In this document: positions 168-64,000 of the stretch, piece by piece
Position numbering within the stretch: the first letter of the stretch is position 1
Layout: the number at the start of each line of letters is the position of its first letter
NCBI GenBank assembly: GCA_964437465.1
Contig: CAYTGI010000003.1
Location: 5,731-69,730 of the forward strand
Length of the DNA stretch: 64,000 nt
Reading direction: 5' to 3'
Source of the DNA: an uncultured Candidatus Saccharibacteria bacterium
GTDB taxonomy: Bacteria > Patescibacteriota > Dojkabacteria > J137
The notes under the pieces: generated by a model
Told to the model about the DNA's origin: nothing
Databases searched by the model: none
What the model saw: only the letters and a program-made list of their open reading frames with translations
Program-made: the position numbers and the translations under genes

Positions 168-3100
168 ATGCTTGGTAAAGTAAAAAAACTATTTGATTCT
201 TCAAACAAAAAACTTAGAGCAACAAGAAATGACTTAACTGCAATAAGAGATTTAGAAGAAGACATAAAAAAAATGTCTGATAAAGACATAAAGAAAAGAA
301 TCTCAGAGATGAAAGATGAGTTAAAAGAACTAGTTAATAAAATTCCAGAAGAACAAAAAAAGTCTCTAACAAAAGTAAATCGAAGAGAAAAATTCCCTGA
401 TAATGAAAAAGAAGTACAGGAAAAGCTTTGGGAGTTTATGCCAGAAGTTTATGCAATGTTAAACGAATCTTTCAGACGAACAGTTGGATTCACCTATCAT
501 GATGTGCAATTACAAGCTGGAATATTATTAGGTAAAGGCCAGCTTCTTGTAGAGCAATATACTGGTGAGGGGAAAACTATGACTTTTATGCTTCCGCTTG
601 CACTTTATGCATTAGCAGGTCGAGGTGCACATCTTGTTACTGTCAATAACTATCTTACAAAAGTAGGTGGTGAGTACGCAGGCTACATGCTATCAAGGCT
701 AGGATTGTCTGTAGGAATTATCTCTCCTGATGGATCATTTAAATTTGTTGAGAATAAAGATCTTGAAAAATATAAATCTAAGGATTCGATTGAAGAGGAG
801 TATGACAGAATATCAATTGATGCAATGGGTGGGAGAAATCTAGTTTCATGTCAGAAAAGAGAAGCTTATTATTGCGATGTAACTTACGCTACAAATAATG
901 AGCTTGGATTCGACTATCTTAGAGATAATATGGCTTGGGATATTGGTAGATTAGCTCAAAGAGAACTGTACTTCTGCATTATTGATGAGGCCGACTCAAT
1001 TCTGATTGATGAGGCTAGAACTCCTTTGATTATTTCTGCAACTCCTGACGAAACTGATACAGAGAAGTACGCTCGTTTCGCAGCTGCTGTAAAAAATTTA
1101 GATGAAGGTGAGGAAAAAGACTACGTTGTTGATTATAAGGCTAGAAGTGTAAATCTAACTGAGTCAGGAATGTCTAAGGTTGAAGAGTTCTTAGAAGTAG
1201 ATAATGCTTGGGCTGACTACTCTACTGCTTACCACATAGAGAATGCACTTAAAGCAAAAGCATTATTCATTAAAGATGATCAATACATGGTTAGAAATGG
1301 AAATGTTTACATTGTAGATGAATTTACAGGACGTGTTCTTGAGGGAAGAAGATATTCAGAAGGTCTTCACCAAGCAATTGAGGCAAAAGAAGGTGTTGAA
1401 ATAAAACAAGAAAGTAAAACTTTCGCTACAATCACTTTCCAAAACTTTTTTAGAATATACAAAGTTCTGGCTGGTGGTTCAGGAACAATTATGACTGAAT
1501 CTGAGGAGTTTTATAAGATTTACGGTTTAGATTCAGTAGTTATACCTACAAATAAACCAAGAATTAGAATTGATTATCCAGATAGGATCTATAAAACAGC
1601 TGAAGCTAAATTTAAAGCAGTTGTTAGTGAAATTATTGAAATGCACGAACAAGGAAGACCAGTTCTTGTCGGTACTACTTCCGTTGAAAAGTCAGAATTA
1701 ATCTCTAAGCTTTTAGACAGAGAAGGTATTCCTCATGAAGTTCTAAATGCAAAATTTCACGAGCAGGAATCTAGAATTGTTGCTGAAGCTGGAAAGAAAG
1801 GTGCTGTAACTGTTGCTACAAACATGGCTGGTAGAGGTACAGATATTGTTATCGGTGGTGGATCTAGAGGTGATGATTCATATAACGAAGTGGCTGAACT
1901 TGGAGGACTACATGTAATTGGTACAGAAAGACATGATTCAAGAAGAATTGATAATCAGCTTAGAGGAAGGACAGGAAGGCAAGGAGAACCAGGAAGCACA
2001 AGATTCTACGTCTCGCTTGATGATCAGATTATGAGAGTTCTTGGTGGAGAATTCTTATCTAAACTTTTAAATATGGTTAGAGTTCCAGACGACATGCCTA
2101 TTGAGATGCAGATGATCGCAAATCAAATTGAAACTGCACAAAAAAGAGTTGAGGGAGTTAATTTTGACTCAAGAAAGCGTATTGTTGAATACGACGATGT
2201 TATGAATCAACATAGAGAGATTTTCTATACTAAGAGAAACAATGTTCTATTTACAACAGACCATGCTTTAGGTAAATTCATAGAAGCTGATAGAGCAATT
2301 GATATTAATCTTCCAGAACATGAAGATAAAAAAGCAAAATATCAAGATGAAGCTGATGACAATAAGGAAAGAGCTGAAGAAATGATTGAACACTTAGTTT
2401 TAAGTACTATTGAAAATCAGATTTTTTCTACAATTCCTGAAGGAACTAAAATAAAAGAAGAAACTGCTGAGAGGGTAATTGAAAGGATCACTAAAACTAT
2501 ACCAGCTCCTCTACTTCAAAGATCTATGGGAGTAGCTAGCTCATCCTTAGCAAAAGAGTATTTAAAGAAAATAGAAAAAGGTGAAGATCCTCAAGAAATA
2601 TTGATAGAAGCCTCTAAAAAATCATTTGAAGATAAAGTTAAAGAACTTGAAACTGATTACTACACGGTAATAAAAATGCTAAATCTTGAAACATTAGATA
2701 AAGCTTGGGTTGATCATTTAGAAATAATGAAAGATGTTAGAGATAGTATCTCTCTATCTGGCTATGCGCAGAGGAACCCATTAGTTGAATATAAAAATAT
2801 AGCATTTCAAATTTTTGAATCATTTATCACTAAAGTAGATTTAGAAGTGTCATCTAAATTCTTCAAAGTAACTAAAGTGCGAAGGGTTAGCCAACCTCAA
2901 AATATTCAAACTAATGATGATGAGGTTAGTGATGTTTTGACTGGGGACAGAGAGATGCTACCTGGTCCTGGTGATGCAGTTAGATCAAAAGATGTGATTT
3001 CAGATATTGATAATGCTGTGAAAAAACGAAATCAAAGAATGCGAACAAACTCTTCAGAACAAGGTTCAAGAACAGTTGTCTCAGAAAAAAAGTATGGAAG

Positions 3101-23732: not shown

Positions 23733-25706
23733 TTACTCTACACTAGTATCTCTAAACTCACCGAGTTTAGCGAGATCGTCCGGATTTGTAGTTATTAGAT
23801 TATGTTCATTTTCACTTGCAACAACCTGAATAGCAACATGGTTAGCGCCCGCAAAGAAAATACCCTGACCTATTCCTGCTGAAAGTAAGAAAGACTTTTC
23901 TCCTTCAGTTAAATAGAAAACTTTTTGAAGTTTGTCTATCGCAGCTGGAGCCTGTTTTAAAAGAATCTGCATTGAAGCATTATTAACAATCGCCTTACCA
24001 TAATCTGAACTTAAGAAGTCATCTACGTCTTGTGTAATTGTAGTAAGACCTAATCCATATTTCCTAGCCCTTTTAGCGATTTGATATACAAAATAGGCAG
24101 CATCTTCATACTGCATCATAATCCATGCCTCGTCTATAATTAATAACCTCTTTCTTTTATCTTTCTTGATCTTAGTCCATATAAAATCAAGCATTGAGTA
24201 CATCGCCATAGGTCTTAGATCAGGGGTTAAGTCTCTAATACTAAAAGCTGTAAAAGTATTATGGATATCGATGGTAGATTTTTGATCAAAAACACCAGCT
24301 GCACTACCTTTAATGTACCTTTCAAGCCTTCTAGCCATCGAATGAGCTTCTTCTTCAGCCATTGCGTTAAGAACCTTATATAGATCTTCTAGTAGAGGAG
24401 GTTCATTAGCATGAGTAGATTTATCAGGGGTAATTCCTTTCTCAGAATAAGTAAGAATTATAGCTCTATCTAAAATAGCTGCTTCCTCTCCTGTAAGTTG
24501 GCCTCCTAGCATTATTCTAATAAGTCCCGAAACAGATCTAATCTTAAATCTTAATTCATCCTCATCTTGATCGTAGAGTCCTGATAACTCAAAAGGGTTA
24601 AGTTTTTGTTCTCCGTCCTGAGAAAACGATATGTATTCACCTCCAACAGCCTGACATAACCTATCGAACTCTTTTTCAGGGTCAATAATTATTATATCAA
24701 CACCAAGCATTAAAGATCTAACTGCCTCAAGCTTAACTGTGTAAGATTTACCAGAACCAGATGCAGCCAAAACAACTGAGTTTGCATTCGGCAAAGAAAA
24801 TCTATCAAAAATCACTAAAGAGTTATTGTGTAGATTAATTCCATATAGAACTCCTTTTTCCATTGTTAGCTCACTAGAGACAAATGGGAATGTACTTGCA
24901 ATAGCTGTCGTATCCAAGTTTCTAGTCATATTTATTTTATCCAAACCATACGGAATAGTTGTTTGGAAACATTCTTCCTGTTGTAAGGTTGCAACTTTTA
25001 TAATTAATCCAATTGTTGCTGCTGTCGATTCAAGATTTTTTGCAACTTGGTCTAGCTCATCCAATGTATCTGCGTGAATTGTTAAATACATTCCGTACTG
25101 GAAGAACTTCTCATTTCCAGCTGCTAGTTGTTGTTGTAAGTTAAGTGCGTCCTGCAGTTTTTGTTTAATTATTGGATCTCCTTGTTGACCAGCTTTGATT
25201 TCTAGGTTAATAGTAGCTTGAAATTCAGCAATTCTTCTTTTTAAAAGTTTAAGCATTTCAGTTGTATCTTTTGGATAGTAGAAAGTACTTATATCAATTG
25301 GATATTCAAAATTAATTAGTGGTTCTAGCCAATTAGGATTAACAATACTTGGATAATCTACCACGAAGTATGATCTAAAATATCTACTACCTATAACAAT
25401 ATTACTAAAGTTAACTTCAATAGCTGAAGGAGCAATTATATCCTTTACATCAATTAGACCACTAGCAAAATCTTGGATAGCTTTTTGTTCTTTTGATAAA
25501 GCTTGAGCCTCTTTGGAATTTACAGGTTGCTTACTCCTTTTTCCTGTAGAAAATTTTCTTCTTTGGTTATTAATTTTTTGACTTTGAAGTTGTGGATTTG
25601 CCCCTCTTTGAACTACCTGCATCCTTTGAGGTAACTGAGATTGTTGAGTATTACCTACCACTTCCTTTCCATTCTTTTTTGTCTTAAATATGTCAAAAAT
25701 TCCCAT
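23733..25706 (-). CDS. VirB4/TraC-family type IV secretion/conjugation-like ATPase
   Basis: Walker A VVLAASGSGKSY and Walker B LLIIDEAWIMM. N-terminal VirB4-like domain preceded by a Q-rich low-complexity segment. Confidence 0.6.
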   Translation of the reverse strand: MGIFDIFKTKKNGKEVVGNTQQSQLPQRMQVVQRGANPQLQSQKINNQRRKFSTGKRSKQPVNSKEAQALSKEQKAIQDFASGLIDVKDIIAPSAIEVNFSNIVIGSRYFRSYFVVDYPSIVNPNWLEPLINFEYPIDISTFYYPKDTTEMLKLLKRRIAEFQATINLEIKAGQQGDPIIKQKLQDALNLQQQLAAGNEKFFQYGMYLTIHADTLDELDQVAKNLESTAATIGLIIKVATLQQEECFQTTIPYGLDKINMTRNLDTTAIASTFPFVSSELTMEKGVLYGINLHNNSLVIFDRFSLPNANSVVLAASGSGKSYTVKLEAVRSLMLGVDIIIIDPEKEFDRLCQAVGGEYISFSQDGEQKLNPFELSGLYDQDEDELRFKIRSVSGLIRIMLGGQLTGEEAAILDRAIILTYSEKGITPDKSTHANEPPLLEDLYKVLNAMAEEEAHSMARRLERYIKGSAAGVFDQKSTIDIHNTFTAFSIRDLTPDLRPMAMYSMLDFIWTKIKKDKRKRLLIIDEAWIMMQYEDAAYFVYQIAKRARKYGLGLTTITQDVDDFLSSDYGKAIVNNASMQILLKQAPAAIDKLQKVFYLTEGEKSFLLSAGIGQGIFFAGANHVAIQVVASENEHNLITTNPDDLAKLGEFRDTSVE

Positions 25707-50221: not shown

Positions 50222-50503
50222 TTGAATGTGAAGTACAATGCATTTGCTTTGATTGAAATTATTGTTGTAGCAGCTTTAATTGCTTTTTTATCAACAATAA
50301 CATTCATTGCTATTAGTCCATCTCAAAACTTTCAGGATGTAAATAGTGCTCTAAGAAAACAGGAGCTTCTAGTAATAGTAAATGCTATTGAATTATACCA
50401 ATTAGACAACAATGGCAATTTCTCATTATTACGTGGTCAGTTCCCTGTACCAATGTACGATATTTCTTTAGCTAATATTAGAATTGATACTGGTACTTGT
50501 TAG
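50222..50503 (+). CDS. Type IV pilin/pseudopilin-like small protein
   Basis: N-terminal KYNAFALIEIIVVAALIA resembles the prepilin leader and hydrophobic stem, with Glu at +5 after a putative NA|F cleavage. Confidence 0.4.
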   Translation: MNVKYNAFALIEIIVVAALIAFLSTITFIAISPSQNFQDVNSALRKQELLVIVNAIELYQLDNNGNFSLLRGQFPVPMYDISLANIRIDTGTC

Positions 50504-53087: not shown

Positions 53088-53768
53088 TCAATACCAAGAA
53101 ATACCTTCTTCAGTAACTTCAAAACCATAGATCATAATTGCGTGTCTTGTTTCTTGCTCCTCCAAAGGTCTATATAATCCATTTAGGTCAGAAACCCCAA
53201 CTATTAATACTTTTCCTTGATTAATATCTTTTGCTAGCTCGATAATCTTACTGTCAGGATCAAAGCCATCTCGATTGTAGTGATGCGCGGTATTATAATG
53301 TCTTTTAAACTCTCCTATTGCTCTAGAACCATAATCCAGTCTTGCTAATTCTAAAGCCATTTCAAAAAAGATAAAGTGATAAATTCGACCACCATTTGAT
53401 TCAGCAATTTTCTCAGCTACTTCATCGTATTCAACTTCTTCTCCTAAATACTGTAATGCATAATATGTAGCCAGCTCAGTGCAGTTTCCTTCACGTGCAT
53501 ATTGTTCATTAGGAATTGGAATATTAGCTTCTGGATTATCTGGATTAGCGGTTATTTTAATACCTGGAACAAATGTTTCATGGTAATATTTACCTTGGTC
53601 ATTGTCCATTTCTTGGCTTAGTGTGTTCAACATAACCATAGCACCAATTTCAAGTTCAATTGCCTTCTCTGTTATTGGTTCTTCTGCCATAAGATCTCTA
53701 TATAACTTACTTATATTATCACTGAGAAAATAGCTTGCATAGTTTAGATTATATATACATATATACAC
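53088..53768 (-). CDS. Putative papain-like (C39-like) cysteine peptidase-domain protein
   Basis: Candidate catalytic Cys (GNCTELATYYALQ) and His (TRHAIMIYGF). The true start is probably an internal Met near 53690. Confidence 0.3.
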   Translation of the reverse strand: MYICIYNLNYASYFLSDNISKLYRDLMAEEPITEKAIELEIGAMVMLNTLSQEMDNDQGKYYHETFVPGIKITANPDNPEANIPIPNEQYAREGNCTELATYYALQYLGEEVEYDEVAEKIAESNGGRIYHFIFFEMALELARLDYGSRAIGEFKRHYNTAHHYNRDGFDPDSKIIELAKDINQGKVLIVGVSDLNGLYRPLEEQETRHAIMIYGFEVTEEGISWY

Positions 53769-53805
53769 AAAGTTATTTAACTAGTATGATGTGCAAGATA
53801 TCCTT

Positions 53806-54399
53806 CTAATTAAGCTCAAGCATACCTCGGAACCCTCTTGAAGAATAAAAAGACTCAGCACCATTATGATACATAAATACAGTATCATATCGTCGATCTC
53901 CAAATAATGCCCCTCCAAGCTCTCTAATTTTTTGTGGAGTACTAAGCCAAGTGGATGTTTTTAAATCAAACTCTCCTAATTCTTGAAGAGCTCTATAAAG
54001 TTCTTCATTTAATATTTCTATTCCCATGTCTTTTGCAATTTCAACTGCATTTCCTCCTGGATTTATTCCTTTTTTCTTTCGTTGGTCTTCTCCTTCTTTG
54101 TCATAGCAAATACTTCTTCTATCTGGTGTTTCTTGGGAACAATCGATTATAAACAACTTATTTCCTAATTTAACTACATCGGGCTTACCACCAGTTCGCT
54201 CCATTGCAACAATTGATCCTATCTTGTTTTTTGTTAGCTTCTTTTCAACTTCAGTCCACTCTACTCCTTTATGTCTGTTCTTATTTTCTTCAAAGCGAGA
54301 TTTTAGAGTTTTCAATAATTCTTTTTTCTCATCAATACTAAATTTTTTATTAACTTTGATTTTAGTTATTGGGTTACCGCTTCCTTTTGGCATTTTCAA
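53806..54399 (-). CDS. DUF4256-like hypothetical protein
   Basis: Recollected similarity to the DUF4256 family (ERTGGKPDVV...GEFD.KTS.W..TP..IR.LGGALF.DRRYD.VF.YHNGAES.Y..RGFRG). Unverified. Confidence 0.3.
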   Translation of the reverse strand: MKMPKGSGNPITKIKVNKKFSIDEKKELLKTLKSRFEENKNRHKGVEWTEVEKKLTKNKIGSIVAMERTGGKPDVVKLGNKLFIIDCSQETPDRRSICYDKEGEDQRKKKGINPGGNAVEIAKDMGIEILNEELYRALQELGEFDLKTSTWLSTPQKIRELGGALFGDRRYDTVFMYHNGAESFYSSRGFRGMLELN

Positions 54400-54410
54400 A
54401 AATTTAATAA

Positions 54411-57400
54411 TTATTTTTTTCTTTTATATTTACTATATTTTCTATTTTGTCTTCTATCTTTTTTAAACTTATCACCAAAAGTGATACAAGAAGCTACCGC
54501 CCCAATTATTACTACTATTAAAACGAGATTAGTTAAATTAAACCCAGTAGGAAGTAGTTCTGAAATAAATGTTTCTTCAGTTTCATCAGTTTCTGAGGAT
54601 TGCTCTCCTTCTTCTGCTGTTAATTCCCAAACTGTTGGATCTATTGGCATCTCTGTTGAAGGGTCATCGGTACATACTGGTTGTTGATTAAATTCAATCT
54701 CATCGTTAATATCTCCGTCTTGATCATCATCCCAGTTTCCGCAGGCTTGATTTTGGACCATAATCATATCCTCAGGTATTGTAATTCTAAAAGTTAAAAC
54801 CACTTCATTTTCTGAATTTTCCTCATCAGTTCCTCCTGGATCAGGACCAATATTTCCTTCCCATACTAATTCCTCTGATATTTCGTTATACATGCAGTTA
54901 GTTGTTATTGAAATACCTCTAGGTTCACATGTAAAACTATTATCAACATAACTTGTTCCTTCTGGAATTGTATCTACAAGAATTACATCTAAAGCTTCAG
55001 TATTTCCATCATTCATCCATACCTGTTTCCATTCAAGCTCAGGTAAGCCCACTTCATTAAAAACTTTCTTTCCTGTAGGAGGGTCGAAAACGTTAGAATA
55101 AACAACTGGAGTTTCGGTAAAGTCTTCATTATCATCATCGTCTTCTTCATCAGAATATTTGTAAGAAATATAGACTTGGTTGTCTATCGTTTCAATTAAG
55201 GAATCATTTAGCTCTCTAACATCAACAGCAAAAACAACATCTCCAGATTCTCCAACTTCAAGATACCCTAGAGGAAACGCACAAACACTTCCAGCATTTC
55301 CATTTGGATCACAAATCCAGCCTGGGGTGCTTAGTGAAGAGTTGAAAGTAGTATTTTGTGGGACGTATTCAGTTATTACAGCATCTTCAGCATCCATATC
55401 ACCTCCATTTCCATAATTCAGTGTATATAAAAGTGTTTCTCCATATCCTATTTCTTCAACTTGAGGTTCTTTATCTATTCCTAAATTAGGTTTTGCGTCA
55501 ATATCGTCAGTATCAGTATCCTGATTATCATCAGGATTAAAATCTGGACCGTATTCTTCATCATAGTTTATTGAAGCAGCATTATAAATCTGATCCTCTC
55601 TAGCAGGTAAACTGTTATCCACATCTACAGCAAATAGAACTTCGTCTGTTTCTCCTGCTCCTAAGGATCCATAATCAAATACACATAGCTGATCAGGTTC
55701 TTCGTCGGTTGTGGAGCATGACCATCCTGGAGTACTATCTGATGAGTTAAAGCTAGTAAATTCTGGGGTAAAATCCTCTATTAACACATTGTTGGCGGTT
55801 GTGTTACCTTTATTTTCTATAGAAAGTGTATAGATTATAGTTTGTCCTGCATTAACAATTGTAAGTCCATCATCCTTAACAATAGATAAGTCTATCTCTC
55901 TTCTTACAGGGGTATCTTCATCGTCACTATTATTACCTGGTGTTAAGTCAGGACCACTTGCCCAGTCATCACTAATAGATATTGTATTATCTATTTGATT
56001 AACACTTTCTGGCATAGAACTGTTGACAGTTACAACAAATAAAGCTGATCCAGTATCTGATGGATTTAAGGTTCCAACAGAGTACGTACATGTACTTCCA
56101 GCTGTATCATCCGGAGCGCATATCCATCCTGGAGTACTAGACCCGCTATCAAAGGTAGTATATTCCGGTACAGTTTCTGTCAAAATTACATTTGTTGATG
56201 TTTGGTTTCCAGCATTTTCATAGAAAATATTATAAACAATCTGTTCTCCATTAAATACATCAATACCTGAATCATTTTTTGTAACAACAAGATCTGGACC
56301 TGCAATGACAGGTGTAACTTCAGAATCACTATTGTCACCAGGGTTTTCGTCAGTTCCATTTGTGCCATCATCTGAAATTGTAACGTTATTAGTTACATCG
56401 TTTACTCCTCCTGGGAAGACTGCATCTGTATCTACAACAAAATCAACTGATCCGCTATCACCAACATCAAGATCGCCAATAGAGAAAGTACAAGTACTAC
56501 CATCATTATTATCAGGAACACATGACCATCCAGGAGTGCTTGATCCTGGATTAAAAGTTGTATTATCAGGAACTACATCAGTAAGTACAACTCCTGTTGC
56601 ATCTTGACTTCCCACATTTGAATAGTCAATTGTATAGGTTATTGGATCTCCAGGAGGAACTGTAACATTACTATCCCCTTTTGAAACTTGTAAATCAGGA
56701 GCTGCTGTAACTGGTGTTGTATCTGGATCATCATTATTTGCAGGAGTTGGGTCAGCTCCGTTTGTCCCATCATCACTGATTGAGGCTGTATTATCAATTT
56801 CATCGTATCCAGAAGGTAAGGTTGTGTCTAAATCAACTGCAAAAGTTATAGAACCTGAATCACCTGCATCTAGATCGCCAATTGAGAAAGTACATGTACT
56901 GCCTTCGTTATTATCAGGAACACATGCCCATCCTGAAGTACTCGTAGCGCTATTAAATGTTGTACCAGTAGGAACATTATCTGTTATCTCAACTCCAGTA
57001 GCATCTTGATTACCAGAATTTGTATAGTCTAAAGTGTATGAGACAGTATCTCCTGGTAAGGCTGTTGCTCCTCCATCATCTTTAGTTATTTCTAAATCAG
57101 GTGCAGCATCAAGAGGATCAGTATCGGTACTTGTATTATTTCCTGGAGTTGGATCATCACCATGAGTTCCATCATCTGAAACATCTGCAGTATTAGTAAA
57201 GTTATCTATTCCAGATGGAATATTAGAGTCTATATCAACAGCAAAGTCTATTGTCGTGTTTGCTCCGTCAGTCAAGGTTCCAACTGAATACGTACAAGTG
57301 CTTCCAGAAGAGTTATCTGGTAGACATGTCCAACCTGGTGAACTTGATCCGTTATTAAAAGTTCCATAATCTGGCACTGTATCTGTAATCTCTACATTAT

Positions 57401-60400
57401 CAGCTTGAAAATCACCAACATTCTCAATAAACAGTGAATAAACGGTAGTTGAACCAGGAGTTACAGAATTAACTCCATTAGATTTTGTTATCTCTAAATC
57501 TGGAGCAGTAATAGTTAAGTCATCTTGTGCATCAATATCGTTCGTAGTTCTCTCATTAGGATTTGAACCATCAATGCTTGAATACTGGTTGATAGTAGCA
57601 GTATTAGTAATGACATCACCTCTTGATTGTCCAGTATCAATAGTTACGTCAAAAGTTATTGTACTTGTATCTCCAACTGCTAAAGTTGCCCATGAAGCTG
57701 TGATTGTTCCTCCAGACTCACTTAATGTGTCTGGTGCTACTCCAGAGTCGTGTGTTAAGTTTCCATCAAAGGTTAAACCTGATGGTAGTGGATCTTCTAA
57801 ATCTATTTCAAATGCATCACTTGTACCAGTATTTTCTATAGTTATCGTAACCTCAATTGAGTCGTTTACTGGTGCTTGATCAGGATTAAAGTTTTTTGTG
57901 ATAGTAATTTCAGGTTCAACTACTGTTGTTGTTACATCATTTGAAATACTTGGAGTTCCGCTATTAACAGTAATCTCAGCATTATTAACCAAATCTGTTT
58001 GTCCTGGAGGAAGACCATCGTTTCCAACTACATCTAATACATCAGCTTCAAGCTGAATTGTGAAAGTATTATTACTTGGATTTCCATCAACTGGAACTGA
58101 AAATGCTCCGAAAGAGAATGTTACAGGATTTCCACTTGAAGCTCCTCCTGAAATTGTTGGACTTGGTACAGTACCGTTAAATCCTGTTGAATCAACTGTT
58201 CCAGATCCAGAAACATACTGCATACCGTTTGGGATATTATCTACTACTTCAAGTGATGTTATAGAACCCTCAGGAACTATTACTTCAATCTCATAGGTAA
58301 CTGTTTCTCCTATTGTTACCTCACTTCCAGCAGTATAAGTCTCAGAAGTTGTTACAAGAGATTTTGTAGTAGTAGAAGACTCAAGTGTAACTGGTGCAGA
58401 GTCAGAATCATTATAGTCATTTATAAGAAATCCAGAACCATCTCTTTCTCCATCACCATCTCCTGAATTACCTGGGATATTTGATCCTGTAGGATTACTG
58501 GTTGTTCCTGTTCCAGGAAGACTAGTATAGGTTAGATCTGCTGTATTAGGAATTGTTGTTCCGACTAGAACAGCGTTGTCAACAGTTCCACTTAGATCTA
58601 TTGTTAGAGTTTCACCAGGTTCAAGAAAGCTTATTGAGACATCTACTAGGTTACCTGGAATATTAGAATTATCTGTTACAACTCCAGAACCTGAAGCAGA
58701 TGGAGTTACTGAAGATAAAATAACATCAGAGTCTATTGAATCTAATACATTTACATCATAAGCATTCAAAGCATTATTTCCTGTAGAGGTATTAGTCACT
58801 ACAATCTGATACTCAATGGTGTCTCCAGCATCAAGTGGAGTGGTAGTAACTGACTTTGAAATGTCTAGCTCTGGCTCAGCAACTATCACACTGACGTTTG
58901 ATGAGTTAGATCCAACTGTACTTATCCCAACATAACCTTGGAACCTATTGTTAAGGGTAATTCCTGACTGATTCCCTGATTCATTTAAAACTAAAGCATT
59001 AAACTCAACGACAATATATTCATTATCTGCATCTCTATCATCATTTGTAATATCTCCAAATTTAAAGTAAATATCAGTTCCACTAGAGTAAGAGTCTGAA
59101 TTGGAGGTAGAGTTGCTAGAAATTGCATCATCAGGTAGTTCACACTCCGGAGTGAATGAATCTACGTTTGCTTCATTCCCAGTAAAATTAAGGTCTGGGT
59201 TTGCTCCACCAGTACATCCTAAACCTCCCGGGGTTAAAGTTGTTGAGGTTGTTGTAGCTGCATTAGATATAAATGCTACGAATGAAGTTCCGTCATTTAA
59301 AAATTGCATTCCATCAGGGAGTCTATCCCTAAATTTGAAGTCAGGTGTTATCCCTTCAGCGACTCTTGCTTCAAGTCTATATCTTACTATTTCTCCAATA
59401 GCAACTCTTTCAGTTCCCGCAACATTGGTTGAATGTGCTTCAGAGGTGGAAACTATAGATTTATTAGGAAATGGTTCGAATACATTTATTGTAGCGCTAT
59501 CCTCAGTAAAGTAATCGTTAGCGCTTCCTCCTGGATCACCAGTATTTCCAGTTCTCTCTGTAGAGTTAGTATTAAAAGTAGATTGAGCAGTTGTAATATC
59601 TCCTGGTAATGAAGTCCACTCAACCTCTGCATCATTATCTATTGTTTGCCCTGTAAAAACAGTATTATCTAGTGTAACGTCGTAAGTTAATGTACAATCC
59701 TCTCCTAGTGGTAATTCATCAATCGTTGCTATTAAAGTAGGAGCCCCAGTATCATTTAAAACAGGTGGTGTTATTACTCCAGCTGAACATGAAAAGTTAA
59801 ACGTTGCAGCAGTATAAGTAAGATCGGAAGGAATGACATCATCAAAGCTAACATTATAAGCATTTAGATCACTATTACCGGTGTGTGAAATAGTAACTGA
59901 ATATTGAACTGTATCTGACGCATCTGCAGATGTTGGAGAAGCACTTTTACTAACTTGAAGATCAGGTTCTCTAATAGTTACATTCGGTGCATTATCACTA
60001 ACTTGTCCTAAGCTCCAACTTAACTCTGCATCGTTATTTCTATTTTGATTTCTTACATTTGCTGCAGTATTTAGTACAACTACGTCGTAAGTTATAGTTA
60101 TAGTTTCATCCGTTAAGTTATCTGTGTCACTATTTGTTAAGGTTCCAAAATCAAAAGTTATGTCTTCCCCTGAGTTTATTGCCGTTGAGTTACTACATAC
60201 ATCCCCAAATGTACCAATACTTGTTGAAAGTCCTGCTGAAGCTACTATTGATGAACAACTTACGAATGCTAGACCAGTATCTAGAGCATCATTTACAATT
60301 GCTGAAGTGAGTGTTCCTTCAGGTATAGTTAGCTCAACTTCATAAGTTATTATTTCTCCAATAGCAACATTGTTACCTGAAGTATGAGCTTGATTTGTTG

Positions 60401-63400
60401 AGTCAATGGTTTTGTCAACTAAAGGTGTTAAAGTAGTCACTTCTGCAGTATCAAACCTTGGTTCAACCATGTGGTTATCACCATTTTCAACTCCTGCATA
60501 GTTAAAAATATCAGCAGTGTTAGTAATAACCTCTTCTGGTTCTACTGATGTGGTTAACTCAAGATCATATGTAATAACTGCTATATTTCCGCCACTAGTT
60601 GAAGAGAAAGAGTCAAGAGATCCTTGTGTAGGGCTTGGGTTCGTTAGCACAATTCCATCTTCAAATATAGGATTGACATCTGTACCATCAATAGGAGTGT
60701 TCGCCAAAGAGTTTCCAGCTCCATCTGTTATACATAAATTTAACCCAGATCCAGGAATTTGAAATCCAGCTTCAAGTGTGTCTTTGAATTGAACATCAAA
60801 AGCACCGTTTACTCCACTTCCTTCATTTTCTAAAACAATAGCAAAGGTTACAATATCACCTGCATCTAAATCAGAAATATCACTATTTATTTCAGTTGTA
60901 TCTAATGCATTAGAAGAAACTGTACCTGTAAACCTCTGACATCCACCACCTGGAGCTGAAAAACTAACAGGAGAAAAAGGATCAGGATCATAAACTGGGC
61001 TTTCTCCATTTGTTGCTACAACTCCTTTTGTTATTTGTATGTCAGGTTGAGTTAGCTCAAATTGAATTATTGAGTCTGCTACTTCAGAACTTAAGTTAGT
61101 AGAACCTTCATTACTTCTTATCTGATTAGTTAAAAATAAGCCATCAGCAAAAGGATCATCAGCAGCGTTAATAGTAAATAGAAGATCGATCTGACTACTT
61201 TGTGTACTTGGATCATCAAAATCTCCATAATCTATTGTAAGTTGGTTAGCTGAAGTTGTTGTAGATAATGTCGGAACAAGCCCAGGAGAACCTAGGACTC
61301 CTACAGTTATGTCGTAGAGTGTGTCTGTTGGTCCAAATTTAACTACACCAGCTGCTGGAGGGGAGGATGTGTAACCTCCGTCTGTCGGACTAGTACTATC
61401 GAAAGTCCATGCTGGCCCAATTACTTCATCAGCATCTGGATCATCTACTTGGAAAACAGGTAGTGGGAAAAAATCGTCAAATGATACTTCTTCAAAGTCA
61501 GAAGTTGGTAATGTAAATTCTACTCTAAAAGTTATTGAATCTCCAGGAGCTACTTGAACAGGAGGAGTGAAAGATGTATTTCCGTTAATAGCATAAATTG
61601 TTTTTGATATTGATCCTCTCTCAATTCCAACAGAAGCACTACTCTCATCGGCTTCCGTAGAGCCTGTAGGGGAAAATGAACTATTATCTAAGACTGATCC
61701 CTCAATACTCACATCATTTGTTAACGTATCTCCTTGGTCAACACTTGGATCTCCTGAAGGAAAATCATCAGAAAATGATTCTTGAATAATTGTTCGATAT
61801 GTAACCGTCCCTGTTGTAGCCCCGTCATTAAAGCTATCACAATCTGGGGTTACAGTCCCTGTTTGTTCAATACATCCTCCAAGTACATTAGCATCTAAAG
61901 CTCTAGTTACCAACTCGTCAGAGATATTAAAAATAATTGTGGTAGTTCCATCATTAGGAGCGGGATCAGCTGGAGTATAGTTTGACAAAACTTCGTAATT
62001 TGCTAAATCAAAATTGCCACTGCTAGTTGATCCGTGCTCAGTTAAAGATAGAGTAGGTGTAAATGTATCGTCAAATCTTTGTCCATCAGAAATAACGTCT
62101 GTGGAGACTATATCAGTAAAACTGAAAAAATCGGAAATTTGGAAGCTATATGTATATTCCAAAACATCTCCTGGAGAATTCCCAGGTGAATTATTATCTT
62201 GAAAAACGGAAACTGATTTTTGAATTGCAATAGATTTGTCTGTAAGAGTGTGATCATTACTTGTTATGTCTGAAGATACGGGTGTTGGTAAATCTCTTGT
62301 ATCTATTGGGTCCCAGGTTCCTTCAGCTGCTGCATCATTTACAGAAGTTGTATCGTTTCCAGTAGTTTCTGAAATTATTAATGAAGAATTGGCATCTTCA
62401 TAGGGTACAAAGAATGAAAATGTTACAGAAGCATCGTTACTTCCTGTACCTCCAGTAACACTTGTACATGTAATTCTAAGTTCGTTATTTGGTGGATTTT
62501 GAGCTCCTGGTGTAGATGGCTCAGTATTTGTGGAACAAGTACCAGGAGAAACACTATCTACTTGTAAATATTCAATATTATCTGGGAGATAATCAATTAG
62601 ATCAAAATCATCTATAGTTTGTCCATCAGCTATATCAGCCGTTATTGTATACTGTCTTGGGAAATTAGGTCCTGTTGCTGTTTCAGACTCTGGCCCGATG
62701 TATGATTTACTAATTGAAAATAGAGTTGGTGTTAGAGATGAGGTGCTAAAAGTCTCAGTAATACTTGGATCGGATGTTGGATTATCTAGGGGATCTTCTC
62801 CAAATTGAAATCCTCCTCTAGCTTGAACATCTAAAGCAGTTGATAAATCAGCGTTTTCACTCATAGATACATTAACAGTTACATCCGCTGTAGGTTGTAA
62901 ATCAGTAAATGATCCAAAAGGTAGTTGAAGAGTGACTAAGGTATCTCCTGCAGTTCCACATATAGATAAAGGTGTATTTGGAGCAGTAACTGCATAGGGA
63001 TGATCTACGCATCCAGTACCTAACCCATCATCTGGAAATTCTTGGACAATGCTTGTAACAGAAGATCCTAAATATGTGGCACTTACAAAACTAAGTCCAT
63101 CTGCTTCGTCTCCAGGTCCAAAAGGAAAAATACCATCAGCTCCTGTGTTAGGGAAAATTAAATCTATAAATGGACCGTATCCAGTATCTGCACCACTATT
63201 ATTAAAGCTAACATTAAAAGAAAAATCTTCTCCTAATAATGATTCAGAAGGTAAAGAAGCAGAAACACTAGGAACAGCTGCAGCTTCTGTTTGACCTGTA
63301 AAAAAAATACTTAGTGCTGAGAATGCAATCGAGCTTGACGTTATTATAGCTAATGACACTACAGAATATCTAAGTGCCTTCTTTTTTAAATTCCTAGTGT

Positions 63401-63410
63401 TGATTTTCAA
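54411..63410 (-). CDS. Giant (2999 aa) cell-surface protein with multiple DUF11-type repeats and C-terminal LPXTG sorting signal
   Basis: N-terminal signal peptide. At least nine ~150-aa repeats open with P[DE]L.[IV][ST]K and carry GSTCT[FY]S..L. The C-terminus has LLPTGF, a hydrophobic helix and the tail KKDRRQNRKYSKYKRKK. Confidence 0.8.
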   Translation of the reverse strand: MKINTRNLKKKALRYSVVSLAIITSSSIAFSALSIFFTGQTEAAAVPSVSASLPSESLLGEDFSFNVSFNNSGADTGYGPFIDLIFPNTGADGIFPFGPGDEADGLSFVSATYLGSSVTSIVQEFPDDGLGTGCVDHPYAVTAPNTPLSICGTAGDTLVTLQLPFGSFTDLQPTADVTVNVSMSENADLSTALDVQARGGFQFGEDPLDNPTSDPSITETFSTSSLTPTLFSISKSYIGPESETATGPNFPRQYTITADIADGQTIDDFDLIDYLPDNIEYLQVDSVSPGTCSTNTEPSTPGAQNPPNNELRITCTSVTGGTGSNDASVTFSFFVPYEDANSSLIISETTGNDTTSVNDAAAEGTWDPIDTRDLPTPVSSDITSNDHTLTDKSIAIQKSVSVFQDNNSPGNSPGDVLEYTYSFQISDFFSFTDIVSTDVISDGQRFDDTFTPTLSLTEHGSTSSGNFDLANYEVLSNYTPADPAPNDGTTTIIFNISDELVTRALDANVLGGCIEQTGTVTPDCDSFNDGATTGTVTYRTIIQESFSDDFPSGDPSVDQGDTLTNDVSIEGSVLDNSSFSPTGSTEADESSASVGIERGSISKTIYAINGNTSFTPPVQVAPGDSITFRVEFTLPTSDFEEVSFDDFFPLPVFQVDDPDADEVIGPAWTFDSTSPTDGGYTSSPPAAGVVKFGPTDTLYDITVGVLGSPGLVPTLSTTTSANQLTIDYGDFDDPSTQSSQIDLLFTINAADDPFADGLFLTNQIRSNEGSTNLSSEVADSIIQFELTQPDIQITKGVVATNGESPVYDPDPFSPVSFSAPGGGCQRFTGTVSSNALDTTEINSDISDLDAGDIVTFAIVLENEGSGVNGAFDVQFKDTLEAGFQIPGSGLNLCITDGAGNSLANTPIDGTDVNPIFEDGIVLTNPSPTQGSLDSFSSTSGGNIAVITYDLELTTSVEPEEVITNTADIFNYAGVENGDNHMVEPRFDTAEVTTLTPLVDKTIDSTNQAHTSGNNVAIGEIITYEVELTIPEGTLTSAIVNDALDTGLAFVSCSSIVASAGLSTSIGTFGDVCSNSTAINSGEDITFDFGTLTNSDTDNLTDETITITYDVVVLNTAANVRNQNRNNDAELSWSLGQVSDNAPNVTIREPDLQVSKSASPTSADASDTVQYSVTISHTGNSDLNAYNVSFDDVIPSDLTYTAATFNFSCSAGVITPPVLNDTGAPTLIATIDELPLGEDCTLTYDVTLDNTVFTGQTIDNDAEVEWTSLPGDITTAQSTFNTNSTERTGNTGDPGGSANDYFTEDSATINVFEPFPNKSIVSTSEAHSTNVAGTERVAIGEIVRYRLEARVAEGITPDFKFRDRLPDGMQFLNDGTSFVAFISNAATTTSTTLTPGGLGCTGGANPDLNFTGNEANVDSFTPECELPDDAISSNSTSNSDSYSSGTDIYFKFGDITNDDRDADNEYIVVEFNALVLNESGNQSGITLNNRFQGYVGISTVGSNSSNVSVIVAEPELDISKSVTTTPLDAGDTIEYQIVVTNTSTGNNALNAYDVNVLDSIDSDVILSSVTPSASGSGVVTDNSNIPGNLVDVSISFLEPGETLTIDLSGTVDNAVLVGTTIPNTADLTYTSLPGTGTTSNPTGSNIPGNSGDGDGERDGSGFLINDYNDSDSAPVTLESSTTTKSLVTTSETYTAGSEVTIGETVTYEIEVIVPEGSITSLEVVDNIPNGMQYVSGSGTVDSTGFNGTVPSPTISGGASSGNPVTFSFGAFSVPVDGNPSNNTFTIQLEADVLDVVGNDGLPPGQTDLVNNAEITVNSGTPSISNDVTTTVVEPEITITKNFNPDQAPVNDSIEVTITIENTGTSDAFEIDLEDPLPSGLTFDGNLTHDSGVAPDTLSESGGTITASWATLAVGDTSTITFDVTIDTGQSRGDVITNTATINQYSSIDGSNPNERTTNDIDAQDDLTITAPDLEITKSNGVNSVTPGSTTVYSLFIENVGDFQADNVEITDTVPDYGTFNNGSSSPGWTCLPDNSSGSTCTYSVGTLTDGANTTIDFAVDIDSNIPSGIDNFTNTADVSDDGTHGDDPTPGNNTSTDTDPLDAAPDLEITKDDGGATALPGDTVSYTLDYTNSGNQDATGVEITDNVPTGTTFNSATSTSGWACVPDNNEGSTCTFSIGDLDAGDSGSITFAVDLDTTLPSGYDEIDNTASISDDGTNGADPTPANNDDPDTTPVTAAPDLQVSKGDSNVTVPPGDPITYTIDYSNVGSQDATGVVLTDVVPDNTTFNPGSSTPGWSCVPDNNDGSTCTFSIGDLDVGDSGSVDFVVDTDAVFPGGVNDVTNNVTISDDGTNGTDENPGDNSDSEVTPVIAGPDLVVTKNDSGIDVFNGEQIVYNIFYENAGNQTSTNVILTETVPEYTTFDSGSSTPGWICAPDDTAGSTCTYSVGTLNPSDTGSALFVVTVNSSMPESVNQIDNTISISDDWASGPDLTPGNNSDDEDTPVRREIDLSIVKDDGLTIVNAGQTIIYTLSIENKGNTTANNVLIEDFTPEFTSFNSSDSTPGWSCSTTDEEPDQLCVFDYGSLGAGETDEVLFAVDVDNSLPAREDQIYNAASINYDEEYGPDFNPDDNQDTDTDDIDAKPNLGIDKEPQVEEIGYGETLLYTLNYGNGGDMDAEDAVITEYVPQNTTFNSSLSTPGWICDPNGNAGSVCAFPLGYLEVGESGDVVFAVDVRELNDSLIETIDNQVYISYKYSDEEDDDDNEDFTETPVVYSNVFDPPTGKKVFNEVGLPELEWKQVWMNDGNTEALDVILVDTIPEGTSYVDNSFTCEPRGISITTNCMYNEISEELVWEGNIGPDPGGTDEENSENEVVLTFRITIPEDMIMVQNQACGNWDDDQDGDINDEIEFNQQPVCTDDPSTEMPIDPTVWELTAEEGEQSSETDETEETFISELLPTGFNLTNLVLIVVIIGAVASCITFGDKFKKDRRQNRKYSKYKRKK

Positions 63411-63577
63411 TTCTATACAACAAAAACATCTTGTTAAAATAATATATCGAAATTAACAAGCCATAACAACTCATAGTGAGTATATAAAGTTATTTTCATA
63501 TGAAGTAATAGAAAATATAAAGATGGCAATAGTGATAAATAGTAAAATTATCAAAATTAGGGTTTTAATATAGTCCT

Positions 63578-64000
63578 TCAATTCTGCTCTATCGGATTCG
63601 CCCTTACTACCAATCTTTTTTCTGCTGTCCATAATGGTGTACAAGTATATAAAGTTAAAATATGTTCATTTGTTTGTTCTTCTATATAAACTTCATCGGG
63701 ATTTACAATAAATACGTCAGAGACCTTGTATACATATTCCTGATTTTCCCAATAAACTGCAAGATAATCTCCAGTTTTAACTTTATCTAGGTGGTAAAAA
63801 GTATTGTTTCCCGTTGTGAATTGATATCTATGAGCTATTAACACCATGTTTCCTCCGTCAATTGGATTCCCAGAAAATTGCCTATGCCAAATACCTTTAT
63901 TTAAATTATCTATATCACCTCCTAAAATTTTTGAATCTAGAAAAATACTTGGCAGTATCAAACTGTTATCTCTTTTAGTTATTTTGTTGTCATCTTCAAC
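63578..64000 (-). CDS. Sortase (partial; N-terminus beyond window end)
   Basis: Catalytic triad context: LIAHR (His), TLYTCTP (Cys), RLVVRANP (Arg). The ORF runs off the window, so the true start is upstream of 64000. Confidence 0.75.
   Translation of the reverse strand, partial: VEDDNKITKRDNSLILPSIFLDSKILGGDIDNLNKGIWHRQFSGNPIDGGNMVLIAHRYQFTTGNNTFYHLDKVKTGDYLAVYWENQEYVYKVSDVFIVNPDEVYIEEQTNEHILTLYTCTPLWTAEKRLVVRANPIEQN

Follow-up and report, generated by a model that had tools for sequence, protein, structure and literature searches.

A gene pair in a CPR bacterium probably encodes a sortase and its giant, head-bearing fibrillar surface protein

At one end of the window, the 64-kb stretch of DNA from a tiny-genome CPR bacterium analysed here, we found two genes on the minus strand: the 3´ part of a sortase gene and, behind a short spacer, a giant gene that opens with a TTG initiator and runs as one uninterrupted frame (Table 1), confirming the 9-kb gene for a 2999-aa protein described in an earlier note on this DNA. 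The 306-kDa product has a pI of about 4 and 479 D/E against 60 K/R, and is organised as about 18 Ig-like β-sandwich domains behind a signal peptide, with a sorting signal at the C-terminus. The mature chain (2913 aa) contains just 27 Lys, at least 17 of which stand at the first-strand position of domains, and the protein carries 15 Cys pairs; a domain that has any holds one or two of them. The proposed signal peptide is recognisable by eye from its n-region, core and TEA-AAA pattern. Promoter-like hexamers in the spacer were no commoner than in shuffles and no clear Shine-Dalgarno sequence was visible there; the promoter and terminator scan gave site numbers not above those in shuffles.

Table 1. 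Features of the giant gene and the neighbouring sortase gene, in window coordinates and in residues of the giant protein
Feature	Residues (aa)	Position	Strand	Basis
Sortase gene, 3´ part (C-terminal 140 aa)		63578..64000	-	PF04203, TIGR01076
AT-rich spacer of 167 nt, sortase stop to giant gene start		63411..63577	-	Sequence reading
Giant ORF, intact	1-2999	54411..63410	-	Collinear with P0121 (58% identity, 35 gaps) and, at 40% identity, with the orthologue in Dojkabacteria cMAG.21
Signal peptide (predicted)	1 to about 44	63279..63410	-	By eye: K/R-rich n-region, hydrophobic core, TEA-AAA
Head module, four all-β sandwich domains	45-788	61047..63278	-	AF2 model and family alignment
CLIPPER/DUF11 domain with an insertion of ~70 aa	789-990	60441..61046	-	PF01345 and TIGR01451 on slice
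Alternating array	991-1969	57504..60440	-	TIGR04226 and PF01345 slices
RrgB-D2-type domains in array	about 995-1131, 1331-1510, 1679-1830		-	TIGR04226
CLIPPER domains in array	1149-1290, 1513-1650, 1833-1969		-	PF01345
Six tandem 134-aa CLIPPER repeats, Cys pair in each	1970-2775	55086..57503	-	Alignment A1
Wall-proximal domain with two Cys pairs	2776-2935	54606..55085	-	Kept in L044 and L038 orthologues
Sorting signal region		54414..54605	-	Sequence reading and orthologue P0121
Acidic linker	2936-2951	part of 54414..54605	-
LLPTG pentapeptide	2952-2956	54543-54557	-
Hydrophobic segment	2961-2979	54474-54530	-
Basic tail	2980-2999	part of 54414..54605	-	11 K/R in 20 residues

We found no other sortase substrates within the 64-kb window, and Pfam searches of the genes around a VirB4/TraG-like ATPase gave no further recognisable type IV secretion system (T4SS) gene. 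A class A PBP is encoded in the window, which indicates peptidoglycan synthesis, and SecA assigns the window to the Dojkabacteria. Exact-sequence look-ups with the giant protein, DUF4256 (three start variants) and SecA recovered no contig that extends past the window end; the one match was a 2.3-kb Logan contig carrying the SWIB gene. The GC content of the giant gene (0.37 versus about 0.31) suggested a recent horizontal transfer, which we rejected on codon usage: codon usage is native, GC3 being 0.16 versus 0.19-0.22 in the neighbours, and the excess sits in GC2, a reflection of amino-acid composition.

The giant gene had been thought to contain near-identical DNA repeats, visible as recurring plus-strand pseudo-ORFs, that would make it prone to recombinational size variation. 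None of these points held. Identity in self-BLASTN peaked at 65% (over 783 nt). TRF found no array of domain length, only six trivial ones with periods of 6-12 nt and about 2-3 copies. An exact-repeat scan gave 19 nt as the greatest length of an exact repeat, and the repeat finder likewise detected no near-identical DNA. Compared pairwise, the tandem units are 48-66% identical in DNA and 42-59% identical in protein, and the plus-strand pseudo-ORFs are unrelated antisense shadows. Size variation was rejected on the orthologue P0121, which at 58% identity is collinear with the protein studied here, has an equal domain count and a length of 2996 aa (35 gaps), and keeps 15 of 15 Cys pairs in position. 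By these sequence comparisons, the repeats of the giant protein are old and diverged.

The assignment of the product as a giant DUF11-repeat surface protein was borne out by both of the models proposed for checking it: PF01345 matched with 372 bits over nine stretches, above its gathering score, and TIGR01451 with 267 bits over 13 stretches. At least nine repeats with PDLxITK-type openings had been counted, and we located ten, at aa 789, 1149, 1513, 1833, 1970, 2104, 2238, 2372, 2506 and 2641. Their length had been put at ~150 aa, but the tandem units measure 134 aa. The Cys pair ascribed to the repeats (W.C.P...GS.C) is present throughout the six tandem units, while two CLIPPER domains of the giant protein have no Cys pair. 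Only six of the ten repeats are in tandem; the other four alternate with RrgB-D2-type isopeptide domains, and are spaced by 320-364 aa because this second domain type sits between them. The RrgB D2 model TIGR04226 scored 156 bits on the whole protein, and on slices 48.8 and 36 bits, above its cut-off of 30 bits, and 28.8 bits, just below it; K...E...N positions are common to all three of these domains. The earlier reading overlooked the interleaved RrgB-D2-type domains, the Lys/Asp/Asn triads and a conserved 745-aa head.

Several lines of evidence place the repeats in a structurally characterised family. K7, G30, G57, L77 and N104 are invariant in the repeat alignment (A1), and the isopeptide-triad positions K7, D/E at 43 and N104 are occupied in nine of nine aligned repeats. 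These positions match the triad K715/D748/N806 of a crystallised CLIPPER domain (PMC12617251). An AF2 model of the repeat (pLDDT 95.7) had the CLIPPER structure 9IFR as its best PDB match in Foldseek (E 1.8e-8, TM 0.67/0.72). The repeats are CLIPPER (DUF11) domains and, on this modelling, have the CnaA-like β-sandwich fold. Among PDB sequences, the best match of the repeat profile was GhpA (9flp_A; E 1.6e-18), within residues 225-1107; single-sequence phmmer searches with the whole protein and with aa 789-1314 gave nothing, so that PDB sequence matches came from profiles only.

The repeats had been said to come straight after the signal peptide; instead, the 745-aa non-repeat head intervenes. 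The head (aa 45-788) matched nothing in Pfam or NCBIfam. Its AF2 model was of high predicted quality (pLDDT 91.4, pTM 0.83) and matched generic Ig-chain proteins alone in Foldseek, at TM 0.12-0.20, a list that includes 3qe5 at rank 3 and the archaeal S-layer protein 8c8l; no ligand-binding fold was recognisable in these matches, only Ig-like sandwiches. The head profile gave no informative structure among PDB sequences. It did define a large family: 1791 representatives of clusters built at 50% identity matched at E<=1e-3, and 1026 still did at E<=1e-30. The proteins measure 2–5 kaa and are spread over many phyla, and the head itself is 40-55% identical between phyla. In the best 150 representatives listed, the head begins about 20-280 residues from the N-terminus. 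Conservation reaches 90-97% at residues K235, D273, K398, K603, D646 and N762, and the CLIPPER domain at aa 789-990 is kept in an alignment of the head family (A2). On these data, the head is a widely conserved module that is missing from Pfam and has hitherto been unstudied.

At the other end of the protein, the domain at aa 2776-2935, to which DUF11 matches are weak, is followed by the LLPTGF sequence (aa 2952-2957), hydrophobic helix and basic tail that had been described. The label LPXTG-anchored did not survive re-inspection, as position 2 of the L-L-P-T-G motif is Leu and strict LPXTG is absent; the LPXTG-anchor models in NCBIfam scans (E<=1) did not match the giant protein. LLPTG satisfies the relaxed pattern L-x-x-T-G, and an identical LLPTGF is found in P0121. 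The pentapeptide of putative substrates in related loci fits the relaxed pattern. Among 80 loci with relatives of this sortase, a gene ending in L-x-x-T-G, a transmembrane segment and a basic tail lies within 500 nt in about 26, with position 2 being A (14), V (6), H/Q/E (4) or P (2). LLPTGF aligns in register with the LxxTG (L-[A/V/P/H/L]-x-T-G) of these sortase-neighbour genes, and with the LPxTGF of relatives that carry a fused sortase. Sortase-substrate motif analysis, which had been proposed as a check, therefore spoke against LPXTG and for the L-x-x-T-G of the neighbours in the sortase clade.

The sortase was correctly placed immediately upstream of the giant gene, and the adjacency is kept in three related genomes (window, L083 and L044), with the same order and strand in the window and L083 and a convergent arrangement in L044 and L038. 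The window end clips the gene: compared with the 201-aa sortase upstream of the L083 orthologue, to which it is 65% identical, the product lacks about 60 residues at its N-terminus, and the membrane anchor would lie in this missing part, past the window end. The fragment nevertheless scored 86 bits with PF04203 (E 2e-24) and 74 bits with TIGR01076 (cut-off 39), and the catalytic His (LIAHR), Cys (TLYTCTP) and Arg (LVVRA) are all present. None of the defined NCBIfam sortase classes, A-F and GN, was reached: the fragment scored at most 62 bits and the full-length orthologues (L044, L038) at most 71 bits versus class cut-offs of 140-166, so that specificity is not readable from any defined class.

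Sortases that tolerate a residue other than proline at position 2 have precedents in the class E enzymes of Actinobacteria, with their LAxTG substrates, and in Streptococcus pyogenes, where the pilin signals are EVPTG/QVPTG. To our knowledge, such signals (LAxTG, EVPTG/QVPTG) do not include one that combines Leu at position 2 and Pro at position 3. The neighbours in the sortase clade mostly carry LAxTG or LVNTG, yet with the class E model, whose cut-off is 160, the sortase and its orthologues scored just 53-56 bits. Our literature searches turned up no publication that deals with the specificity of CPR sortases or with fusions of LPXTG and sortase.

We also observed that 38 of the 133 family representatives examined (about 29%) have a sortase fused in the same polypeptide; in 36 of the 38, LPxTGF is followed directly by the sortase domain, without a membrane segment. 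The LPxTGF-sortase fusions tie the family and its xTGF site to sortase chemistry.

We propose, with a probability of roughly 0.7, that one gene of the pair encodes a dedicated sortase and the other its substrate, a covalently anchored fibrillar surface protein that presents the head for attachment. The giant protein would be exported by Sec via its N-terminal signal peptide, and its about 18 β-sandwich domains would fold extracellularly, most of them self-locking through an autocatalytic, Asp/Glu-assisted Lys-Asn isopeptide bond and many being additionally stapled by a disulfide. The C-terminal hydrophobic segment and basic tail would retain the protein in the membrane until the membrane-bound sortase cleaves it, presumably at LLPT|GF, and passes it to an acceptor amine, for which a peptidoglycan precursor is the likeliest candidate. 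The expected outcome is a protease- and force-resistant stalk, perhaps 70 nm long, with the head held off the cell to bind a target that is probably a host-cell or partner-cell surface. In its layout the giant protein is an ordinary kind of fibrillar adhesin with a non-textbook anchor motif; given that no ligand-binding fold was recognised in the head, the term adhesin rests on architecture and analogy, from which the earlier suggestion of a probable adhesin or host-attachment factor is the most reasonable inference.

One of the closest parallels is the CLIPPER adhesin of 9IFR (Protein Sci 2025, PMC12617251), which is like the protein described here in domain family, K/D/N triad positions and CnaA-like fold. 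CLIPPER adhesins also combine disulfides with isopeptide bonds, as predicted here, and share the layout of signal peptide, head, stalk and sorting signal (PMC12617251). The characterised example is, however, a Gram-negative adhesin with an OmpA-like anchor where we find a sortase signal, and has a CTTC disulfide motif where we find a W.C...GS.C hairpin pair (PMC12617251); unlike its stalk, the stalk here alternates CLIPPER and RrgB-D2-type domains, and bears an unannotated head. The Gram-positive LPXTG adhesins of the MSCRAMM and AgI/II types have in common with the giant protein the tripartite C-terminal signal (pentapeptide, hydrophobic segment, basic tail) and, as predicted here, an isopeptide-stabilised Ig-like stalk. 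They are served by housekeeping or dedicated sortases, the counterpart here being the adjacent sortase with its His/Cys/Arg triad, and differ in that we find an LLPTG pentapeptide, a sortase outside classes A-F/GN and a CPR bacterium as the organism.

An unlikely alternative, though the strongest, is that three to seven chains form a parallel bundle, a rigid grappling-hook-like appendage with the heads as hooks, anchored by sortase instead of T9SS. GhpA (Aureispira, PDB 9flp, a heptamer) and GhlA (Litorilinea aerophila, Chloroflexota, a trimer, compared by description only) are, as here, giant secreted Ig-like chains with a C-terminal cell anchor, and have an N-terminal distal module with CLIPPER-type domains. 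The best PDB profile match of the repeat falls inside the N-terminal hook module of GhpA (residues 26-1402), a hook for which a resemblance to AgI/II adhesins such as 3QE5 has been reported; 3QE5 is also the third-ranked structure for the head model. A DUF11 giant protein builds polar hook-tipped filaments in L. aerophila, and most of the named top matches of the head come from Chloroflexi MAGs (Anaerolineales, Caldilineae, Roseiflexaceae). However, the head profile had no match to GhpA even at E<=10, the similarity is limited to generic CLIPPER domains, the protein has no T9SS domain, and with 18 domains the chain is far shorter, a third to a quarter of the size of GhpA and GhlA.

Somewhat less probable still is a passive envelope part, a spacer, glycocalyx-like coat or S-layer-like shield without specific binding. 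Such a role would suit the extremely acidic, Lys-poor chain, the head with no identifiable binding fold and its model's match to 8c8l, and DUF11 proteins are known from archaeal sheath and S-layer contexts (PMC12617251). On the other side, the conservation of the head across phyla and its N-terminal placement in the best 150 representatives listed fit a specific function at the distal tip, and fibrillar adhesins are defined by just such a head-stalk-anchor order (PMC12617251).

We consider it very improbable that the protein is a pilin polymerised head-to-tail by the sortase into a covalent pilus, as in the Spa/Rrg pili of Gram-positive bacteria. TIGR04226 is an RrgB D2 pilin domain, one slice weakly matches the SpaH/EbpB major pilin model, and of the sortase classes it is C with which the full-length orthologues score highest; but their score is far below the class C cut-off (71 versus 160 bits), the giant protein has no [YFW]PK (YPK-type) motif, neither the window nor L083 has additional pilin genes beside the pair, and a 3000-aa subunit is without precedent in such pili. 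The idea that the length is an artefact, of a pseudogene or a mis-assembled repeat array, is barely credible: repeat-rich MAG genes are frequently collapsed or frameshifted and the ERZ25039527 homologue is broken into several ORFs, but the 9-kb frame stays open, P0121 comes from an independent sample and is collinear, and the units are too diverged for assembly collapse.

Beyond the anchored fibrillar protein, and only tentatively, the gene pair may represent, in split form, a large and so far undescribed family of 'self-sorting' giant proteins, made of head, CLIPPER stalk, co-evolving xTGF site and dedicated unclassified sortase. If so, the in-cis fusion without a membrane segment would imply that anchoring proceeds by self-cleavage in a single turnover. 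The head could then be a common target-capture tip, possibly with grappling-hook-like ends as in the Chloroflexota GhlA, with which a CPR bacterium would seize host cells.

The prevailing view of CPR bacteria (Patescibacteria) is that they live as cells attached to other microbes. Beyond type IV pili, we know of almost nothing that has been described as holding them to their partners. According to a survey of type IV secretion systems in CPR bacteria, no adhesins were detected (10.1101/2025.01.22.634366). The locus described here is a concrete candidate for CPR attachment, a predicted covalently anchored, cross-linked fibre with a defined head. The L-x-x-T-G signals beside the CPR sortase clade make proline at position 2 the exception, so that searches with the LPXTG pattern under-count CPR surface proteins, and the head family together with its sortase-fused relatives represents a sizeable gap in the domain databases.

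We read the giant gene near the right end of the window as encoding a fibrillar adhesin of an already known type, with a stalk of CLIPPER (DUF11, PF01345) isopeptide domains and a sortase anchor. PF01345 scored 372 bits on the protein, so the DUF11 identity of the repeats holds up in the HMM check that the earlier note had named, and the RrgB-D2-type domains were matched by TIGR04226 (156 bits for the whole protein; 48.8, 28.8 and 36 bits for slices). The mature chain (~306 kDa, pI ~4) has 479 D/E versus 60 K/R residues, and the protein holds 15 Cys pairs. Lysines are sparse, 27 in total, and at least 17 of them occupy the first-strand position at which each domain's isopeptide Lys would be expected. 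Nine aligned repeats share the invariant columns K7, G30, G57, L77 and N104, with D/E at position 43; judged by the alignment, K7, D/E43 and N104 are the Lys/Asp/Asn triad seen crystallographically in the CLIPPER domain 9IFR (K715/D748/N806; PMC12617251). For a single repeat modelled with AF2 (pLDDT 95.7), the top PDB hit was likewise 9IFR (E 1.8e-8, TM 0.67/0.72). Isopeptide bonds are predicted to form in the repeats. Disulfides co-occur in ~30% of CLIPPER domains (PMC12617251).

Features of the giant protein, its gene and other parts of the window
Feature	Nucleotides	Strand	Residues	Basis
VirB4/TraG-like P-loop ATPase, ~29 kb from giant gene	23733-25706	-		PF19044, E 3e-26
Small ORF, 93 aa, type IV prepilin-like N-terminus (…NAFALIEIIVVAALIAF…)	50222-50503	+		
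DUF4256 protein (E 2e-70) and 226-aa protein, directly 3´ of giant gene	53088-54399	-		
Giant ORF, uninterrupted, 2999 aa, TTG start	54411..63410	-		ORF reading
Mature chain, 2913 residues	54540-63278			
Promoter-like pair, -10-like TAGAAT overlapping TTG start	63405-63440	-		
AT-rich spacer, 167 nt, between sortase gene and giant gene, same strand				
Sortase gene, 3´ part, upstream of giant gene, cut by window end	63578..64000	-		PF04203
Signal peptide			1 to ~44	by inspection
Head, no Pfam/NCBIfam family	61047-63278		45-788	
Four CLIPPER/DUF11 domains (first with insertion) alternating with three RrgB-D2-type isopeptide domains			789-1969	
Six tandem 134-aa CLIPPER repeats, W.C...GS.C pair in each			1970-2775	
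Wall-proximal domain, kept in orthologues			2776-2935	
Acidic linker			2936-2951	
LLPTG pentapeptide			2952-2956	
Hydrophobic segment			2961-2979	
Basic tail, 11 K/R among 20 residues			2980-2999	

No Shine-Dalgarno sequence is visible before the TTG; the K/R-rich n-region and the N-termini of orthologues are what point to this start. The GC content of the gene (0.37 vs ~0.31-0.35 in neighbours) is a composition effect of a Thr/Ser/Gly/Pro/Ala-rich protein. Foreign DNA was ruled out as the cause, since the excess is confined to codon position 2 (0.46) and GC3 (0.16) is below that of the neighbours. Downstream, the 226-aa protein gave a weak, sub-threshold match to C39-like peptidases, and a SWIB protein is also encoded; none of the DUF4256, C39-like and SWIB genes is kept beside orthologues of the giant gene, and as the first two are not kept beside the orthologue at L083, they are probably unrelated to it. 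The next named relatives of SecA, encoded at the window's other end, are all Candidatus Dojkabacteria (55-74% identity), identifying the organism as a CPR/Patescibacteria bacterium, and a class A PBP encoded in the window indicates that it makes peptidoglycan. ATPases like the VirB4/TraG-like one have been described in the type IV secretion system of Patescibacteria; a survey of these systems reports no associated adhesin (10.1101/2025.01.22.634366). No other domains of such a system were recognisable in the checked flanking genes. The prepilin-like ORF had no Pfam match.

Near-identical DNA repeats had been proposed to make the gene prone to recombinational size variation, a claim that the DNA contradicts. 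The strongest self-BLASTN alignment reached 65% identity (over 783 nt), TRF reported just six trivial arrays (periods of 6-12 nt, ~2-3 copies) and none with a domain-sized unit, and exact internal repeats are at most 19 nt long, compared with 12-15 nt in shuffles. Identity among the six tandem units is 48-66% in DNA and 42-59% in protein, and the plus-strand pseudo-ORFs taken for repeat copies are mutually unrelated antisense shadows. An orthologue from an independent sample (P0121, 2996 aa, 58% identical) is collinear end to end with 35 gaps and shares all 15 Cys pairs and LLPTGF. Diverged units and this collinearity thus mark the array as old and stable, and also rule out a mis-assembled repeat count. 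One homologue (L082 10001-19882; ENA ERZ25039527 contig_15798) is broken up into five successive ORFs on one strand (953, 1048, 65, 224 and 961 aa), probably by frameshift errors; splitting of this type would explain why many family database entries end short, at ~800-1300 aa.

The 140-residue sortase fragment (PF04203, E 2e-24) retains the His (LIAHR), Cys (TLYTCTP) and Arg (LVVRA), in agreement with the earlier note that a sortase is encoded immediately upstream. At L083 the gene immediately 5´ of the giant one, in the same orientation, encodes a 201-aa sortase with an N-terminal TM segment, 65% identical to the fragment. At L044 (Dojkabacteria cMAG.21, 2794-aa orthologue) and L038 sortase and giant gene are convergent neighbours. 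Of the proposed LPXTG anchor, the sortase-type C-terminal signal stands but the motif does not: the pentapeptide is LLPTG, and none of the NCBIfam models for LPXTG anchors matched the giant protein. We surveyed 80 loci with sortase relatives (L002-L081), which come entirely or almost entirely from Patescibacteria MAGs. At ~26 of them a gene no more than 500 nt away encodes a C-terminus made up of L-x-x-T-G, a TM segment and a basic tail; the residue at position 2 is most often A (14), followed by V (6) and H/Q/E (4), with P in just 2. The signals beside this CPR clade are mostly LAxTG, LVNTG or LH/Q/EDTG; since canonical LPxTG is so rare (~2/26), LPXTG-pattern searches would overlook most CPR sortase substrates. 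Orthologues of the giant protein carry LAVTG, LVNTS(G), LLPTG and LAKTG. The sortase belongs to an unclassified clade, with even full-length orthologues reaching none of the NCBIfam sortase classes (at most 71 bits vs cut-offs of 140-166); its substrates resemble class E (LAxTG) signals. Anchor motif and sortase clade are where the protein differs from the textbook sortase-anchored fibrillar adhesin.

A C-terminal sortase domain (TIGR01076, 41-56 bits, above cut-off) is present in 38 of the 133 long family representatives examined. These fused relatives, all outside the window, include P0124, P0125, P0131, P0132, P0137, P0141 and 32 more. LPxTGF(A)P directly precedes the sortase domain in 36 of the 38, ~170 residues from the C-terminus and with no membrane segment between, which places substrate motif and enzyme in cis. 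We found no paper describing LPxTGF-sortase fusions. The window's LLPTGF aligns with their LPxTGF; together, adjacency, neighbouring signals and fused relatives mark LLPTG as the probable sortase site.

The 745-residue head, unmatched by Pfam and NCBIfam models, is the least expected part of the protein. An exhaustive search returned 1791 representatives of 50%-identity clusters at E<=1e-3 (1026 at E<=1e-30), with named matches in Chloroflexi, Planctomycetes, Acidobacteria, Myxococcota and others. In the best 150 listed, the head is 40-69% identical and starts ~20-280 residues from the N-terminus, mostly within ~100, of proteins mostly 2000-5000 aa long. Across the family the C-terminal anchors are swapped: LxxTG plus TM in low-GC CPR-like members, and elsewhere canonical LPxTG plus TM, IPTL/PEP-CTERM-like tails, a 'YWL...GP...LPxxxR' end or a fused sortase. 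An AF2 model built with 40 homologues (pLDDT 91.4, pTM 0.83) is all-beta, with four sandwich domains; its Foldseek matches, all of low TM, were confined to Ig-chain proteins (integrin legs, AgI/II C-terminal domains, S-layer, mastigoneme), a generic fold from which no ligand can be read. The conserved K235, K398 and K603, with D273, D646 and N762, suggest that isopeptide locking may extend to three of these sandwich domains.

The main rival, and the more novel reading, is kinship with grappling hooks. The repeat profile has GhpA of Aureispira as its top PDB match (9flp_A, E 1.6e-18), inside the N-terminal hook module, and the DUF11 giant protein GhlA of a Chloroflexota bacterium forms trimeric filaments with hooks at their tips; the head profile, however, had no match to GhpA, and we regard the kinship as a lead, not as membership. 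Best supported, at a probability of roughly 70% for the whole, is the sortase-anchored adhesin: the protein would be exported by Sec, fold outside the cell with autocatalytic isopeptide and disulfide locking, and be held back by its C-terminal TM segment and tail until the adjacent sortase cuts between T and G of LLPTGF and transfers it to a wall precursor. The product would be a covalently anchored stalk of ~18 domains, ~70 nm long if each spans 3.7-4 nm as the dimensions of GhlA and GhpA suggest, displaying the head so that it can attach, probably to a host cell. Of greatest interest are two features of the family as a whole: an unannotated head, and relatives that carry LPxTGF and a sortase in one chain.
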